The notes below the pieces were generated by a model, which had not been told where the DNA came from, made no database searches, and was given only the letters and a program-made list of their open reading frames with translations. This document shows positions 880-63,654 of a stretch of 64,000 bases of DNA, piece by piece (the stretch's first letter is position 1; each line of letters starts with the position of its first letter). The position numbers were made by a program, and so were the translations under genes. Location: the IMG/VR virus record IMGVR_UViG_3300044630_002233, positions 7,787 to 71,786 of that record; one strand, given 5' to 3'. This stretch comes from a virus (taxonomy: Duplodnaviria; Heunggongvirae; Uroviricota; Caudoviricetes).

Positions 880-1150
880 ATTTTAGATTAGAAAATAGTA
901 TTTGGGTTGCTTCTTTACCAATCTCACAGATAAACAAATCTCTTGCAGTATGCATCATTGCAGTAGCCATCAACAAAATATCTGCACGTGTTTCACACTG
1001 CTCGATTTGTTGATTGATCGGTTTCATTAAATCTAAGAGTCGTGTCTCTCTTCGTGTTTCATCTGTTTCTACGGTGAATTCTTGTGGTACTTTTGGTACA
1101 TCTCTAAATTCAACGTCAACAATATTGTTGTCACTCATATTTTTCTCCAT
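842..1150 (-). CDS. hypothetical protein (102 aa)
   Basis: Minus-strand ORF packed between neighbouring genes with short overlaps. Confidence 0.4.
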   Translation of the reverse strand: MEKNMSDNNIVDVEFRDVPKVPQEFTVETDETRRETRLLDLMKPINQQIEQCETRADILLMATAMMHTARDLFICEIGKEATQILFSNLKFENPLNNESQDS

Positions 1151-2157
1151 GTCGTAAAATGTAATTTGGCTGCTGCTCCTGAGTAGGAGTTTTTATTTAT
1201 TAGATCAACGATAGAATTTTGATCCATCCCAGCCAAAATCATTTCATTAATATCTTTTTGTTTCATTGTATCTGGCAACATACAGACATTATACCCTTCG
1301 TCAATATATTTTTCAAGTTGCCTTACAATATCTTTGTTGCGTGGTTCATTGTCAATAACAATGGTGCAATTAGACTTAACCTTTTGGATTGTCAAAAGAT
1401 CGAAAGAAGCACCACTAACAGCAAGACAATTGGGAAGGAAAAGAGAATCAATTTGCCCTTCAACAACAAATATTTTCTCGGCATAGTTGACCCTGTCCAG
1501 ACCATAAATTTTCTCCTTGTCTTCATCAAGTTTAATTGTATAATACTTTGGTTCTTCCGCACCAAAAGCTCTAGCAGAATAAGCAAAGCATTTGCCTTCT
1601 GGTGTAAAGTATGGAAAGATTAAACGAGGATGGTCTTCATCTTCGTTTTTAAATTTTTCCAAGTTTTTATTTGACCACTTTTTAAATTTGGGCGCAAAAT
1701 ATATTAGATTCCATTTATCCTTGGGAATCTTTCTTGCTTCTACGTACTTAACCACTGGGTGGTCTTCTGGGAGTTTATCGATTCGTTGTGTTCCGTCAAG
1801 AACTGAATCAACACTTTCGATTACAGGCGCTTTTGTATCAGATACAAACCTGTCAATCTCTTTGTGATCATTATAACGAGTTGCTCCAGCTTTATATCTT
1901 TCCAGAACATACTCATCATACATAACATGGTCTACAAACTTTATAAAGTTTCCAATGTTAGTGCTATAACCACAATTGTGACACTTTACAAACAAGTCGG
2001 TCTTCATCTTATAGATGTACCCACGTGCTTTTAATTTGTTTTTCTTGGAGTCGCCACAGACAGGGCAACTAAAGTTCCAACTGTATTCATCTTTCTTCTT
2101 GAAGTTCCTAAGTCTTGGACCAAGAAGATTTGCATACTTTGCATCAATATATAACAT
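1135..2157 (-). CDS. 61: DNA primase (T4 gp61-like)
   Basis: N-terminal zinc ribbon CPVCGDS...CHNCG and C-terminal TOPRIM motif VVEGQIDSLFL. The likely true start is the ATG at 2157 (MLYIDAKY...), which is preceded by GGAG; the track ORF begins earlier at a TTG. Roughly 340 aa, matching T4 gp61. Confidence 0.8.
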   Translation of the reverse strand: MLYIDAKYANLLGPRLRNFKKKDEYSWNFSCPVCGDSKKNKLKARGYIYKMKTDLFVKCHNCGYSTNIGNFIKFVDHVMYDEYVLERYKAGATRYNDHKEIDRFVSDTKAPVIESVDSVLDGTQRIDKLPEDHPVVKYVEARKIPKDKWNLIYFAPKFKKWSNKNLEKFKNEDEDHPRLIFPYFTPEGKCFAYSARAFGAEEPKYYTIKLDEDKEKIYGLDRVNYAEKIFVVEGQIDSLFLPNCLAVSGASFDLLTIQKVKSNCTIVIDNEPRNKDIVRQLEKYIDEGYNVCMLPDTMKQKDINEMILAGMDQNSIVDLINKNSYSGAAAKLHFTTWRKI

Positions 2158-2182: not shown

Positions 2183-2211
2183 ATTATACTATAAAACAAC
2201 TTAAAAAGCAA
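2183..2211 (-). promoter_or_regulatory. Candidate sigma70-like promoter for the primase gene (-10 TATAAT, -35 TTGCTT, 17-nt spacer)
   Basis: Minus strand reads TTGCTT-N17-TATAAT about 25 nt upstream of the primase RBS. Confidence 0.3.
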
Positions 2212-2227
2212 GCATGATGCAATACTT

Positions 2228-2272
2228 GCTTCCAAACTTGACAACAGGCATAATTACGGTGTCAAGGATGAT
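2228..2272. repeat. 45-nt palindromic repeat element, copy 1 (CTTGACA-N16-TGTCAAG core)
   Basis: TGCTTCCAAACTTGACAACAGGCATAATTACGGTGTCAAGG is almost identical to the copy at 41999..42045. It is a 7-bp inverted repeat with a 16-nt spacer, sitting in the intergenic leader of the primase gene. Confidence 0.7.
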
Positions 2273-4271: not shown

Positions 4272-4868
4272 TTATAATGTAACAGTAAACCCTACATTCG
4301 AAATAACATGCCACTTAGAATTCAACCATTGCAACTGAAGGCTTGCTCCAGAAGATGATGTTGTAATTGATGTAGCACGAACATTTGATCCAGACAATGC
4401 AACTGCACCAGCAGCAGCCATTACTGCAACTGTTTTAATCTGCCCAGTAACACCGTTAGCGATTGTTAATGTAATCGCACCAGATGCATCAACTTCTGTT
4501 ACTGCAGTTGTTGCATTGATTGTTCCTGTACCCAACCCACTTAATGCTTGTGGAGTTTGTGACAAACGTAAGAAACCGTTGCTAACAGCAAGGTTACCAG
4601 TTACGTCTACTTTTTCTGTTGGAGTTTCTGTACCGAAGCCAACTCTATCGGTAGATGCGTCTACAAATACAAGTTGGTCATCGTTAAGACCTTTGATTCT
4701 TTGGTCTTGGTCACCACCGTCAGAGTTTAATACGGTAGGTGTTTTAATGTTAGCAAGGAAGTTAGCAACAGTAAGTTTCTTGTTACTACCACCCTGAACA
4801 ATATTCAATAAATCTGCACCAGCAGCTGAGGTCGCTACTGGTAATTCAGATATCTTTTGATCTGCCAT
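4272..4868 (-). CDS. virion structural protein, fiber/Ig-like (198 aa)
   Basis: Gly/Thr/Ala-rich beta-type composition. A late promoter motif and a 5' leader hairpin lie upstream. Confidence 0.45.
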   Translation of the reverse strand: MADQKISELPVATSAAGADLLNIVQGGSNKKLTVANFLANIKTPTVLNSDGGDQDQRIKGLNDDQLVFVDASTDRVGFGTETPTEKVDVTGNLAVSNGFLRLSQTPQALSGLGTGTINATTAVTEVDASGAITLTIANGVTGQIKTVAVMAAAGAVALSGSNVRATSITTSSSGASLQLQWLNSKWHVISNVGFTVTL

Positions 4869-4934: not shown

Positions 4935-4942
4935 TATTTATA
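4935..4942 (-). promoter_or_regulatory. T4-type late promoter motif TATAAATA
   Basis: Minus strand reads TATAAATA immediately after the upstream stop codon and about 65 nt before the ATG at 4868. Confidence 0.45.
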
Positions 4943-20265: not shown

Positions 20266-21669
20266 TTAAAAATTAAACTCTGCGTCTATTGTTTTTGTTT
20301 TTCTACTTCTGTCGAAAAGTGGAGTATCATCACCGATATCTTCCTTAGTATATGTATTCGACTTTTGATTTCCAACATTAGACTGAGCACCCACTTCAAC
20401 ATTATATAACTTCATTTTACTTCTGTCAACCCCAATTACAAACCTTTTATAATTTCCAGGATCCGCATAACGATTCTTGAGTTGCTTAACCATAATCTGT
20501 CCAAGTTCCTCTAGTTCTTCAGTAGAAACTAAAGCAAGCATTAAGTCTGCTGTTGCTGGAAGACCAAACGATTCAGAAGTATCTTCCAATCCAGGATCGC
20601 TATTTGTAAAACCACTTCGTGTAGTTTGAGTAGCAGAAACAATAGGAACATTGTATTCACCTGCTAGACCACGAAGTTCTTCAGCGATGGACTTAATATA
20701 TGTATATGAGTTAACACTAGCACCCAACTTTAATCTTGATGAAGCACAGATATTCAAGTAGTCAACGAAAACAATATCTGGTTTAAATTCACGCTTCATC
20801 TTTAATTCTTCAAGCAATGCTCTGAAGTGGCCAGAGTGAGCAGAAGCAGTAGGATATTCTTTGACAATCAATTTACCTTGCGTTTTACTTTGAACCTTTT
20901 GAACACGACGTTCAAATAATTCTCTATCAACAACTGCAAGTTCATCCATACCAAGATTAAGCAAGTTCGCATCAATACGTTCAGCAATACGTTCCTCTGC
21001 CATCTCCATAGTGATATAGAGAACATTTCTACCTTGCATTAGAGAAGTCGCTGCGACGTGACACATAAACAAAGACTTACCCACACCAGTACCAGCGAGG
21101 ATAATGTTTAGGGTCTTTTTAGACAATCCACCTTTGGTGATTGTATTGAGCATGTCGAGGTCGAATGGAAGTTTTTCTTCGACTCTATGGTAGAAGTCCC
21201 ATCGAGCTTCGAAGTCTTCCAGATAATCGTGACCAATGTGATTATCAAAAGAAACAGCAAGAGCATCAGACAACAATGAAGGAATGGCATCCTGTTGTCT
21301 TTGTTTGTCTTTTCCTTCGATAATTCGAATAGAGTCCATAATAGCATTATAGACAGCCCTTTGCTTACAGAATGATTCCGTTTCAATTTCTAACCAATCC
21401 TGTACGGTATCAGTTGGCGTCAACTCTGAAATATATTGTTGAAGTTCTTTAGACTCAACTTCATTTATATCTGTTCTGTTGCCAACTTCAATCGCAAGGA
21501 TTTCATTTGTTGCTGGTTTGTTAAACTCACTGAAGAATTTAATAATCTCAGTCGCAAGGATTTTCTCCCTGCGGTCTGAGAAATATGTTGGATCTATGTG
21601 AGGTAATACTTTACGACAAAAATTTTCATTATGAACCAGATTCGCTAGAATCGTTTTTTCTATCCTCAT
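20266..21669 (-). CDS. 41: replicative DNA helicase (T4 gp41-like, DnaB family)
   Basis: Walker A GTGVGKS. The N-terminus [30 protein letters not shown] parallels the T4 gp41 start. RecA-fold motifs are present downstream. Confidence 0.85.
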   Translation of the reverse strand: MRIEKTILANLVHNENFCRKVLPHIDPTYFSDRREKILATEIIKFFSEFNKPATNEILAIEVGNRTDINEVESKELQQYISELTPTDTVQDWLEIETESFCKQRAVYNAIMDSIRIIEGKDKQRQQDAIPSLLSDALAVSFDNHIGHDYLEDFEARWDFYHRVEEKLPFDLDMLNTITKGGLSKKTLNIILAGTGVGKSLFMCHVAATSLMQGRNVLYITMEMAEERIAERIDANLLNLGMDELAVVDRELFERRVQKVQSKTQGKLIVKEYPTASAHSGHFRALLEELKMKREFKPDIVFVDYLNICASSRLKLGASVNSYTYIKSIAEELRGLAGEYNVPIVSATQTTRSGFTNSDPGLEDTSESFGLPATADLMLALVSTEELEELGQIMVKQLKNRYADPGNYKRFVIGVDRSKMKLYNVEVGAQSNVGNQKSNTYTKEDIGDDTPLFDRSRKTKTIDAEFNF

Positions 21670-26581: not shown

Positions 26582-26610
26582 ATTATACCTGAGATTCTAA
26601 TTAAAAGCAA
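26582..26610 (-). promoter_or_regulatory. Candidate early promoter (TTGCTT-N17-TATAAT)
   Basis: Consensus -10 with the shared AGG upstream extension; the -35 is weak. Confidence 0.35.
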
Positions 26611-26939: not shown

Positions 26940-27132
26940 TTAAAAAATCAATAAAACTCGATGCTTCATTAAAATCGGTGAAGTATCTTGAGAATACCTG
27001 CTCTTGGTAAAAGCAGTGTTGCGCAACAAGTAACACGTACTTGTCACGGAATACAGATATCTTTAACAACCAGTCTTTACGACGGACTGTTTGAAAAGAG
27101 ATCATATCTTTGGAGACTTTTGCTTTCATCAT
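26905..27132 (-). CDS. hypothetical protein (75 aa)
   Basis: Minus-strand ORF overlapping the previous gene by about 35 nt. Confidence 0.35.
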   Translation of the reverse strand: MMKAKVSKDMISFQTVRRKDWLLKISVFRDKYVLLVAQHCFYQEQVFSRYFTDFNEASSFIDFLIEQDNYDSENF

Positions 27133-27149
27133 ATTCTTATTTATGATGA

Positions 27150-27174
27150 AGAGGGAGTCTCCTCCCTCTTTTTT
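27150..27174 (+). terminator. Plus-strand-oriented intrinsic terminator hairpin (AGAGGGAG-TCTC-CTCCCTCT followed by TTTTT)
   Basis: Perfect 8-bp GC-rich stem followed by a T5 run on the plus strand only. The minus-strand reading lacks a downstream U tract. Confidence 0.45.
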
Positions 27175-27327
27175 AAGACTTAGGTGGTTGGGTTTTACCG
27201 TTTACCCATTCCCAATCTTCATCTGTCATTGGGATCCAATTAGTCAATTCTATTCCCCTTAGCATACGCAGCAGCTTTTGCTTTGCGTGCTTCGATAATT
27301 GACTCGATCATGACGTTGAAGAATGTC

Positions 27328-28025: not shown

Positions 28026-28033
28026 TATTTATA
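28026..28033 (-). promoter_or_regulatory. T4-type late promoter motif TATAAATA upstream of the long hsp20 leader
   Basis: Minus strand reads TATAAATA, about 190 nt upstream of the hsp20 ATG. Confidence 0.35.
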
Positions 28034-41198: not shown

Positions 41199-41384
41199 TT
41201 ATTCAGTAACTTTTAATTCGCTCACCAATACGTTAATTTGACGCTTTACTGCTTCTTTTGGAACACCGTCTTCATCATCTTCAACGTGGTCATATTCAAT
41301 CCAAATACGATCAGCGTCAGCTTCTTTAATAAATGTCGCTGGAACCCATGCATCATTATGGTAAATTTCATAAGTCTTAGCCAT
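41199..41384 (-). CDS. hypothetical acidic protein (61 aa)
   Basis: ORF between genes 55 and 47. Confidence 0.35.
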   Translation of the reverse strand: MAKTYEIYHNDAWVPATFIKEADADRIWIEYDHVEDDEDGVPKEAVKRQINVLVSELKVTE

Positions 41385-41907
41385 TAATATCTCCTTCGGT
41401 AAAGTCTTCTAGCGTAGAACGCTTTTTAGTTTTTTTCGGTTTAACAGGAACATCAGTATTGTTGTTCATCTGTAAATAGTCAACATACGCATTATTATAT
41501 AGTCCGTCTTCGTCATGCTCTTGCAGCTCAAATGCATCAAAGGGCATATCTTGAATCATTTTTTGCTTCACATAATTTTGTTTCTTTTCTTTTTGAATGC
41601 GTCTTAGAAAAGCATACCATATAATCTGTGTAAAATAAGCGAAGGGATTTTTAGATTTGTCTGGATCGAAATTTTTTACATACTGGATGCAGTTTTCAAT
41701 ACCATCACTAATCATCTCTTCTCGGTAAGTATAATTTAGAAAATTTGGTTTGTATGATAAATGCGTAGCAATTTGTAAAATACATTTACCAACATATTCT
41801 GGGACTCTTGGTTCAGCTTCTCCCGATTCATGAGCCTCAGCAATTTTCTTCCTATACTCAATTAATGCTGCTAGTAACTCAGCATTGTTTACATAATGTG
41901 TTGCCAT
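41377..41907 (-). CDS. 55: late-transcription sigma factor gp55
   Basis: YVNNAELLAALIEY ... EEMISDGIE ... NFDPDKSKNPFAYFTQ parallels T4 gp55 (YVNNKELLQAI ... QEMIADGIE ... NFDETKYKNPHAYITQ). Confidence 0.85.
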   Translation of the reverse strand: MATHYVNNAELLAALIEYRKKIAEAHESGEAEPRVPEYVGKCILQIATHLSYKPNFLNYTYREEMISDGIENCIQYVKNFDPDKSKNPFAYFTQIIWYAFLRRIQKEKKQNYVKQKMIQDMPFDAFELQEHDEDGLYNNAYVDYLQMNNNTDVPVKPKKTKKRSTLEDFTEGDING

Positions 41908-41998
41908 AATTTAAACCTTATTTTTTTGTTTTAACCAACTGTAATCATTATACTTTAATTATCTTTAAAAAGCAAGTTTGTTTTATTGGAAAATATAT

Positions 41999-42045
41999 TT
42001 GCTTCCAAACTTGACAACAGGCATAATTACGGTGTCAGGGTTGAA
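41999..42045. repeat. 45-nt palindromic repeat element, copy 2, upstream of gene 55
   Basis: TTGCTTCCAAACTTGACAACAGGCATAATTACGGTGTCAGGG; about 40 nt are identical to copy 1 at 2228..2272, which is preceded by a similar AAAAGCAAG block. Confidence 0.7.
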
Positions 42046-42053
42046 GATAGGAA

Positions 42054-42530
42054 CTAATGTTTAGTTTCATTACCAGGAACGACAGTAAAAGGAATCTCTT
42101 CCTCTTCTCTCTTTTCCCTTCTCTTCCTTGCTCTCTCGAATATACTATGAAGTTGATCTACTGCTTTAGCAATATTCTCCACAGTTTCATCATTCTCGAG
42201 ATTCCCTTCCGCAGCTTGCTTCTCATCAACATCTACATCAGTTTCATGCTCGTGGATCATTCTTTGATAATGGGGAATCATCACTTCATGTAACTTCTTA
42301 GAAAATAAGATGTCTTTCTTTTGAAACGTAAAGACCTTATCCTCAGTAAACTGACAATATGGACCAGATGTAATTTGTTCAACAAGACCTGTTGGTTCTA
42401 ACCTTGGAAACAGACGAATTATCATGGGAAACTCAATTGTAATTATTTCGTTGTTTTCAAATAATTTAGTTGCCATCAATTGGTCGCCGTTATACATTCG
42501 CAAAAAGATATACTTATCTTCTTCTGTCAT
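42054..42530 (-). CDS. hypothetical protein (158 aa)
   Basis: ORF downstream of uvsW. Confidence 0.4.
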   Translation of the reverse strand: MTEEDKYIFLRMYNGDQLMATKLFENNEIITIEFPMIIRLFPRLEPTGLVEQITSGPYCQFTEDKVFTFQKKDILFSKKLHEVMIPHYQRMIHEHETDVDVDEKQAAEGNLENDETVENIAKAVDQLHSIFERARKRREKREEEEIPFTVVPGNETKH

Positions 42531-44492: not shown

Positions 44493-44507
44493 TAATTGTA
44501 AATTTGT

Positions 44508-45068: not shown

Positions 45069-45076
45069 TATTTATA
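45069..45076 (-). promoter_or_regulatory. T4-type late promoter TATAAATA
   Basis: Minus strand reads TATAAATA 28 nt upstream of the gp3-like ATG. Confidence 0.5.
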
Positions 45077-47541: not shown

Positions 47542-47549
47542 TATTTATA
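47542..47549 (-). promoter_or_regulatory. T4-type late promoter TATAAATA upstream of the scaffold gene
   Basis: Minus strand reads TATAAATA in the 47-nt gap between the protease and scaffold genes. Confidence 0.45.
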
Positions 47550-63646: not shown

Positions 63647-63654
63647 TATTTATA
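63647..63654 (-). promoter_or_regulatory. T4-type late promoter TATAAATA
   Basis: Minus strand reads TATAAATA between the terminator at 63.68 kb and the gene start at 63622. Confidence 0.5.

Follow-up and report, generated by a model that had tools for sequence, protein, structure and literature searches.

How T4-like phages of marine and fresh waters arrange middle-phase expression without MotA and AsiA is the general question on which the locus studied here bears (PMC2984593). The more immediate question is what a short sequence, present in two almost identical copies, does ahead of a primase gene and a late sigma factor gene. The DNA analysed (a 64-kb stretch, hereafter referred to as the window) belongs to an uncultured T4-like myovirus, and all its credible open reading frames (ORFs) were on the minus strand, which is called the gene strand below. 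Megablast searches of the cultured phage genomes with both loci gave no match, i.e. no close cultured relative was found. The gene identities proposed in a preliminary description of this DNA held: the primase (1135-2157, minus strand) gave a weak match to DnaG and was 60-87% identical to the proteins of relatives, and the gp55-like late sigma factor (41377-41907, minus strand) was approximately 60% identical, in tblastn, to the gp55 of cyanophages and pelagiphages, matches annotated as late sigma factor.

The 38-mer TGCTTCCAAACTTGACAACAGGCATAATTACGGTGTCA occurred exactly twice in the window, both times on the plus strand (2227-2264 and 42000-42037), whereas none was expected by chance (100 shuffles). 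Similarity between the copies was wider than this core, with 47 of 50 nucleotides (94%) identical between 2222-2271 (copy 1) and 41995-42044 (copy 2; the pair constitutes repeat family D12), and TTAAAAAGCAAG was found 5' of both (2201-2212 and 41965-41976). The duplicated element is real and well above chance. The preliminary description had reported the two-copy repeat, with about 40 identical nucleotides, and the shared sequence before each copy; both were borne out, with coordinates off by 1-2 nt. An element profile search revealed no third copy in the window, but the element was conserved in relatives (see below), and the chance duplication which that description had contemplated was not upheld. 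No tRNA or tmRNA was found, and neither the window nor 16 related loci had an Rfam family reaching the gathering score (noise only, with E values up to 5).

Both copies had the same position in the order of genes and signals. Along the gene strand, the stop codon of the upstream gene was followed by the element, a hairpin, a TTGCTT-N17-TATAAT promoter, a Shine-Dalgarno sequence and the ATG of the primase or gp55 gene. Copy 1 was located directly after the stop codon of the gene at 2276-2611 and copy 2 directly after that of the gene at 42054-42530 (both minus strand), and both were upstream of the -35 boxes of the primase (2211-2206) and gp55 (41975-41970) promoters. Since the element follows the upstream stop codons and precedes the sense promoters, it is outside the transcribed leaders of primase and gp55, and the earlier placement in their 5' leaders had to be abandoned; the element reads instead as a promoter on the opposite strand.

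The two upstream transcription units were headed by the late promoter TATAAATA. The one at 4935-4942 (minus strand) headed the operon running from 4272-4868 to 2276-2611 and ending at copy 1: small genes, mostly of unknown function, the last of which encoded a DUF7201 coiled-coil protein. The one at 45069-45076 (minus strand) headed a unit composed of a tail-tube-like gene, the genes for UvsY and UvsW and a 158-aa gene, which ended at copy 2; this unit was not purely late, as uvsY also had its own early-type promoter (TTTACA-N17-TATAAT at 44502). In the whole window TATAAATA was present five times (4935-4942, 28026-28033, 45069-45076, 47542-47549 and 63647-63654), always on the gene strand, in intergenic DNA and 25-78 nt upstream of a start codon, making up a clean set of T4-type late promoters.

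On the plus strand, the element consisted of TTGCTT, exactly 17 nt, CATAAT, an inverted repeat around this -10 hexamer and a Shine-Dalgarno-like leader. In copy 1, between the stop codon of the gene at 2276-2611 and the primase promoter, the -35 box of the predicted antisense promoter was at 2226-2231, the -10 box at 2249-2254, the inverted repeat CTTGACA-N16-TGTCAAG at 2237-2266 and the Shine-Dalgarno-like end AAGGATGA (AGGATGA) at 2264-2271, in the 5' end of the predicted plus-strand transcript. In copy 2, between the stop codon of the gene at 42054-42530 and the gp55 promoter, the corresponding predicted -35 and -10 boxes were at 41999-42004 and 42022-42027, the inverted repeat CTTGACA-N16-TGTCAGG at 42010-42039, and the element ended in GGGTTGA. 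The 7-bp inverted repeat formerly assigned to both copies was thus exact only in copy 1; copy 2 had six Watson-Crick pairs and a seventh, G-T, on the plus strand only. A promoter built on the TTGACA hexamers of the repeat was considered and rejected, as the spacing to -10-like hexamers was wrong on either strand (5 nt, or none at 16-18 nt).

The divergent -35 boxes of the sense promoter and the cassette formed an AAGCAAG/CTTGCTT inverted repeat, so that the “AAAAGCAAG” highlighted previously is the -35 box of the sense promoter read backwards. This hairpin was located at and upstream of the cassette -35 box, with its T-run on the gene strand and not on the cassette strand. In copy 1 (2204-2233, minus strand; GGAAGCAAGTAT...ATGCTTGCTTTT and a T-run) the arms carried the two -35 boxes, and the structure was terminator-like and passed the terminator scan on the gene strand (2233-2204, 12 pairs). 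At copy 2 the same scan gave no acceptable gene-strand terminator (8-bp stem, 23-nt loop).

No conserved ORF was present behind the Shine-Dalgarno-like end of either window copy. A 25-codon ORF after copy 1 was discarded as a gene, not being conserved in the relative L171. A 78-codon ORF after copy 2 (42057-42293, plus strand) was discarded too: its frame coincided with a part of the sense protein that is acidic and poor in Leu and Ser, and it is probably open through the composition of that protein rather than being a gene. It was antisense to the 158-aa gene, and its ATG was formed by the terminal His codon of that gene.

The motif TTGCTT-N17-[TC]ATAAT was found five times in the window, against a chance expectation of about 0.08 (our estimate), and always in intergenic DNA. 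Three sites, all TTGCTT-N17-TATAAT, were on the gene strand and preceded the primase (2183-2211), gp55 (41947-41975, the top weight-matrix match in the window) and exonuclease/DNA polymerase (26582-26610) genes; the other two were the plus-strand copies, each back-to-back with the gene-strand promoter of primase or gp55. In the exonuclease/DNA polymerase promoter, an 8-16 bp inverted repeat enclosed the -10 box (folding z of -7.3). There were also seven perfect TTGACA-N17-TATAAT sites (-35 starts at 20429, 21898, 26182, 31482, 33971, 35209 and 37825), several of which shared spacer sequence (AATTCA...CAGG, repeat family D3) and several of which fell inside ORFs as called. All seven were on the gene strand, and TTGCTT therefore represents a distinct class, for homologues of T4 middle genes.

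Only sense primase promoters from other phages (41 training promoters) went into a weight matrix. With its -35 and -10 columns, the top five matches in the window, both strands considered, were the three gene-strand promoters and the two copies, the copies scoring 17.1 and 16.2 bits vs. 16.0 for the primase promoter of the window itself. Among 20 shuffled windows, one gave 17.4 bits, and each copy alone is therefore borderline. The full-length sense-promoter matrix missed the copies (1-2 bits), the spacer columns being dominant in it. In the copies, unlike in the sense promoters, TTGCTT was followed by CC and not by an invariant T, and the -10 box began with C. The element profile matched the sense primase promoters of two relatives (L147 and L135) in reverse orientation (E of 1.7e-4).

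The CTTGACA/TGTCAAG stem, for which an RNA hairpin had been suggested, folded no better than shuffled sequences on either strand (z from -0.4 to -1.1). In relatives, 81% of the cells of this long inverted repeat paired, with one compensatory cell, a result equalled by 111 of 500 shuffles, i.e. there was no covariation beyond shuffles. The left arm (CTTGAC) was near-invariant and the right arm drifted (GTCAAG, GTCAGG, GTTAGG, GTAGAG, GTCTGTGG); the variable positions were G-T pairs on the plus strand and A-C mismatches on the gene strand. A second, small hairpin after the -10 box (CTGAC/GTCAG, CTAAC/GTTAG or CCACAG/CTGTGG, depending on the relative) was rejected: it was out of register between clades and no more frequent than in shuffles.

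An inverted repeat enclosing the -10 box, with a sequence differing in each phage, is a general feature of the TTGCTT promoter class: the 46 distinct sense primase promoters had a mean folding z of -2.86, and the -10 box was enclosed by at least five pairs in 89% of them. The geometry of the copy 1 repeat is common to these sense promoters, and the repeat first described is a weaker version (z of about -1.5) of the class feature, in an antisense cassette. Hairpin-embedded TTGCTT-N17-TA..AT promoters were observed approximately 30-70 nt upstream of the primase start in L084, L097, L128, L131, L150 and other relatives. The hairpins enclosing the -10 box ended beside the Shine-Dalgarno sequence, their stems differed between phages and their G-U pairs were on the gene strand only; they look like a device separating read-through from self-initiated transcripts. 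Another plus-strand site of the window, within the 388-nt gap at 26940-27327, had TTGCTT-N16-TATGAT and, immediately after it, a strong hairpin (AGAGGGAG TCTC CTCCCTCT) and a six-T run on the same strand (27120-27185); this site may be a bidirectional terminator or a tiny antisense RNA. The gap also contained unannotated small minus-strand ORFs of approximately 17 and 75 codons.

The element was compared with 80 loci around g55 and 80 around primase, taken from viral contigs, and viral and metagenome contigs were scanned with a degenerate pattern; together these defined a family of 21 distinct members. Invariant in these 21 relatives were the TTG of the -35 box, positions A2, A4 and T6 of the -10 box and the length of the spacer (17 nt, no indels); indels fell immediately after the -10 box. 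The ACnGTG...GG(A/T)TGA block which follows, with the invariant GG.TGA of the Shine-Dalgarno-like end, was conserved above what a promoter needs, and this could reflect a gene-strand signal instead.

Members of the family were found in four contexts: before g55, before primase, between baseplate genes, and in sense orientation among small ORFs. Before g55, and before primase in a minority of lineages, the cassette was antisense. It was also antisense in L170, L175 and L180, where it separated a gp5-like baseplate hub gene from the structural gene that follows, and there no sense promoter was found near it. In L168, L192, L197, L198, L209 and L213, a cassette approximately 84% identical was in sense orientation, within a block of small co-oriented ORFs. 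In these sense-orientation contigs GAGGATGAnATATG started a 75-aa ORF, and in L168, L192 and L213 an SD-like motif (GAGGATGA) was followed by the ATG of this ORF; judging by this arrangement, the cassette can serve as an ordinary gene promoter.

From the primase loci of relatives the cassette was mostly absent, and it is therefore dispensable there; the primase copy is, going by the loci sampled, lineage-specific. The g55 copy was found in the same place in lineages whose gp55 was 59-65% identical and whose neighbouring intergenic DNA was unalignable. In L005, the g55 copy carried the AAGGATGAT end of the window's primase copy, and this shared end suggests sequence exchange between the g55 and primase loci; for concerted evolution it gives a hint only, as the two loci could be linked on one contig in no other lineage. 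The g55 copy of L005/L165, the closest relative, ended in GTCAAGGATGAT, like the primase copy of the window (2260-2272), and not in GTCAGGGTTGAAG, unlike the g55 copy of the window (42033-42048).

Using a threshold of at least 10 of 12 consensus positions, an antisense sigma-70-type promoter motif was identified before g55 in S-RSM4 (TTGACA-N17-TAGAAT), S-SRM01 (TTGACA-N17-TAGACT), HTVC008M (TTGACA-N17-TATAAT) and most uncultured relatives; among g55 loci whose intergenic region was 130 nt or longer, roughly three quarters carried it. Most of these motifs had a shuffle p of 0.05 or lower, and their -10 boxes ended 11-44 nt from the upstream stop codon, the upstream gene being uvsW itself in some phages. 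The antisense promoter was present even where the sequence was otherwise unrelated (TTGTAC-N18-TATAAT, TTGACA-N17-TATAAT), and a position kept in this way speaks against the g55 element being a neutral relic. A TTGAAGATAG-like motif opened the predicted g55-context antisense transcript in the window (42038-42053, plus strand), in L055 and in L183 (S-RSM4); these very distant phages share it in the forms GGTTGAAGATAGG, CCTTGAAGATAGT and GGTTCAAGAGAGG, beyond the needs of a promoter.

Each copy is, on sequence grounds, probably an active, backward-facing promoter cassette of the sigma-70 type, similar to the PeSL/PmSL cassettes and antisense to all the genes. This reading was preferred because of the anatomy of the motif, its promoter-like conservation, the family members that appear to drive genes and the antisense conservation at g55. 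During infection, host RNA polymerase would fire from the cassette, which points into the 3' end of the preceding TATAAATA-headed operon, and the product would be a non-coding antisense transcript interfering with, or insulating, transcription across the boundary, by convergent transcription or by RNA pairing against the upstream operon; the outcome would be that primase and gp55 stay dependent on their own promoters. The primase copy may have arisen from the g55 copy, or been homogenised with it, via recombination between cassettes, as proposed for PeSLs. The early-type promoter of uvsY makes a simple “anti-late” account weaker at copy 2.

A wider proposal, possible though doubtful, is that T4-like viruses of the cyanophage and pelagiphage types, whose genes are all on one strand, keep a dedicated backward promoter between uvsW (or a small neighbour) and g55. 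Its non-coding transcript would converge on uvsW/uvsY and help to time the switch from origin-dependent to recombination-dependent replication and late transcription, and the device would have been copied, in the lineage of the window, to where a second late operon ends beside the primase gene. This promoter is proposed as the functional counterpart of the T4 arrangement, in which the middle transcript of uvsY, the primer at oriF, is directed towards uvsW.

Four other explanations were weighed against the backward-facing promoter. It is unlikely that the copies are functionless relics, that is, PeSL/PmSL-type cassettes which recombination at the palindromic -35 hairpin had inserted or turned round and which have yet to decay. 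Several unrelated contexts in both orientations, primase loci mostly devoid of the cassette, a 38-nt identity of the window copies, such as a recent duplication or conversion would leave, and an SD-like end with no conserved ORF in the window would all agree with such an origin; however, the g55 copy was kept in place across lineages with gp55 59-65% identical and unalignable flanks, the promoter-critical positions and spacer length were invariant, and phages with unrelated sequence at the g55 site still had an antisense promoter motif. Less likely again is a gene-strand module, combining a stabilising hairpin with a terminator and a (T)CATC(A/C)ACC box, at the 3' end of the operon upstream; the plus-strand promoter would then be an incidental feature. 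Such a module would account for an element that always begins within a few nucleotides of a stop codon, for the terminator-like gene-strand hairpin after copy 1, for the invariance of TCAnCC and CAC on the gene strand and for the small, differing hairpins beside a conserved ACAC in several relatives (the CTGAC/GTCAG, CTAAC/GTTAG and CCACAG/CTGTGG pairs), but it leaves the fixed 17-nt spacing and the sense use of the L168-type cassette unexplained. Moreover, copy 2 had no acceptable terminator and a hairpin loop of 23 nt, the small hairpins were out of register between clades with no covariation beyond shuffles, and the variable positions of the long repeat were A-C mismatches on the gene strand.

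The shared symmetric operator advanced in the preliminary description, in which CTTGACA-N16-TGTCAAG would bind a dimeric regulator of both primase and gp55, or act as a sigma-70 decoy, was not favoured and is improbable. Both arms were conserved as sequence and not by compensatory change, as in a protein site, and the site is at about -45 to -95 of two co-expressed genes and overlaps the antisense -10 box, where a repressor could act. Against this, the arms were unequally conserved, the cassettes of L170, L175 and L180 were followed by no sense promoter to regulate, that of L168, L192 and L213 appears to be a promoter itself, most relatives' primase promoters work without the element, and inverted repeats of unrelated sequence are general at the same place, around the -10 box, in the other promoters of the class. 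The centre-to-centre distance between the arms, 23 bp, is also unusual for a helix-turn-helix dimer. The least probable explanation, and a very improbable one, is that the antisense promoter makes a primer RNA, the site being an origin of the T4 oriF/oriG kind, in which the transcript of a middle-mode promoter forms an R-loop. The MotA-box-like TGCTT of the -35 box and the lack of an obvious protein product would suit it, as would the neighbourhood of one copy to uvsW/uvsY (by analogy only with T4 oriF, whose primer, the uvsY middle transcript, is convergent towards uvsW) and of the other to the primase gene. However, no A+T-rich unwinding element was present downstream (GC of 0.40-0.44, and 0.41-0.44 in the 100 nt downstream, vs. 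0.384 in the window), GC skew, uninformative here, was monotonic across both copies, and the family also occurs as an apparently ordinary gene promoter and between baseplate genes.

The main interest of the backward-facing promoter is the wide conservation of the g55 antisense promoter together with its testability in cultured phages: the motif at the uvsW/g55 boundary is present in S-RSM4, S-SRM01 and HTVC008M, and can be tested directly in existing hosts. If this promoter is active, conserved antisense or convergent transcription would be a timing or insulation device in a large and ecologically important group of viruses; if it is silent, the element would be an ordinary duplicated promoter cassette. 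On the gene strand, TTGCTT-N17-TATAAT, usually with a hairpin enclosing the -10 box, marks homologues of T4 middle genes.

The MotA/AsiA-dependent middle promoters of T4 have a MotA box 12 +/- 1 bp from the -10 box (PMC2988021), and the cyanophage-type relatives of T4 are reported to be without motA and asiA (PMC2984593). As in T4 middle promoters, TGCTT replaced the TTGACA of the -35 box and was accompanied by a good -10 box, and the class was used by the homologues of primase 61, 55 and DNA polymerase 43; the hint of middle-mode control in the preliminary description has some basis in this MotA-box-like -35 class. Unlike T4 middle promoters, all the members in the window and the 41 training promoters had 15 nt from TGCTTnn to the -10 box, i.e. 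a normal -35 geometry. The T4 MotA box is (a/t)(a/t)(a/t)TGCTTtA, compared with aaaCTTGCTTT in the sense promoters and TTGCTTCC in the cassette, which had TGCTTCC where the sense promoters had TGCTTT.

In T4, the genes e, soc, 49 and I-TevI have a late (or middle) promoter inside a hairpin of early transcripts. Here too, an inverted repeat brackets the promoter, and read-through transcripts could form a hairpin beside the ribosome-binding site which transcripts started inside it could not; the class here, however, is TTGCTT-N17-TATAAT, and its antisense copies have no known read-through transcript or ORF. The “anti-late” RNA of T4 is mostly early transcription running into oppositely oriented late genes, and does not come from dedicated cassettes. 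A further antisense RNA, CfrI of cyanophage S-PM2, is placed at psbA and a homing-endonuclease gene (Millard et al. 2010, as cited in PMC2984593). As with anti-late RNA and CfrI, the host-type promoter of the cassette would give an RNA complementary to the 3' part of the neighbouring operon, late genes included; unlike them, the antisense transcript is here predicted from sequence, and the locus is different from that given for CfrI in the citing paper. Literature searches on anti-late RNA and on cyanophage antisense start sites found nothing on this locus.

Among described systems, the PeSL/PmSL cassettes known from T4-like phages (Arbiol et al. 2010, PMC2839356; Comeau et al. 2014, PMC4122927, for the definition of the family) come closest, the likeness being functional and architectural. 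The window copies differ from them in their location in the conserved core (primase, gp55, uvsW), facing against the genes and with no ORF behind, and there are only two in 64 kb. The stem of the cassette encloses the -10 box, whereas the PeSL stem is upstream, as a terminator, and the g55 copy is widely conserved in position, whereas PeSLs are described as markers of plastic regions. PeSL membership fails in the window on two defining features, the downstream gene and the hyperplastic location. Both systems are short composite regulatory cassettes repeated within one genome, in which a promoter, either sigma-70-like or of the TGCTT (“Mot-box”) type, is combined with a stem-loop next to it and a Shine-Dalgarno sequence, in varied gene contexts and with signs of exchange between copies, and the member found among the small ORFs of L213 and L192 is in surroundings resembling a hyperplastic region.
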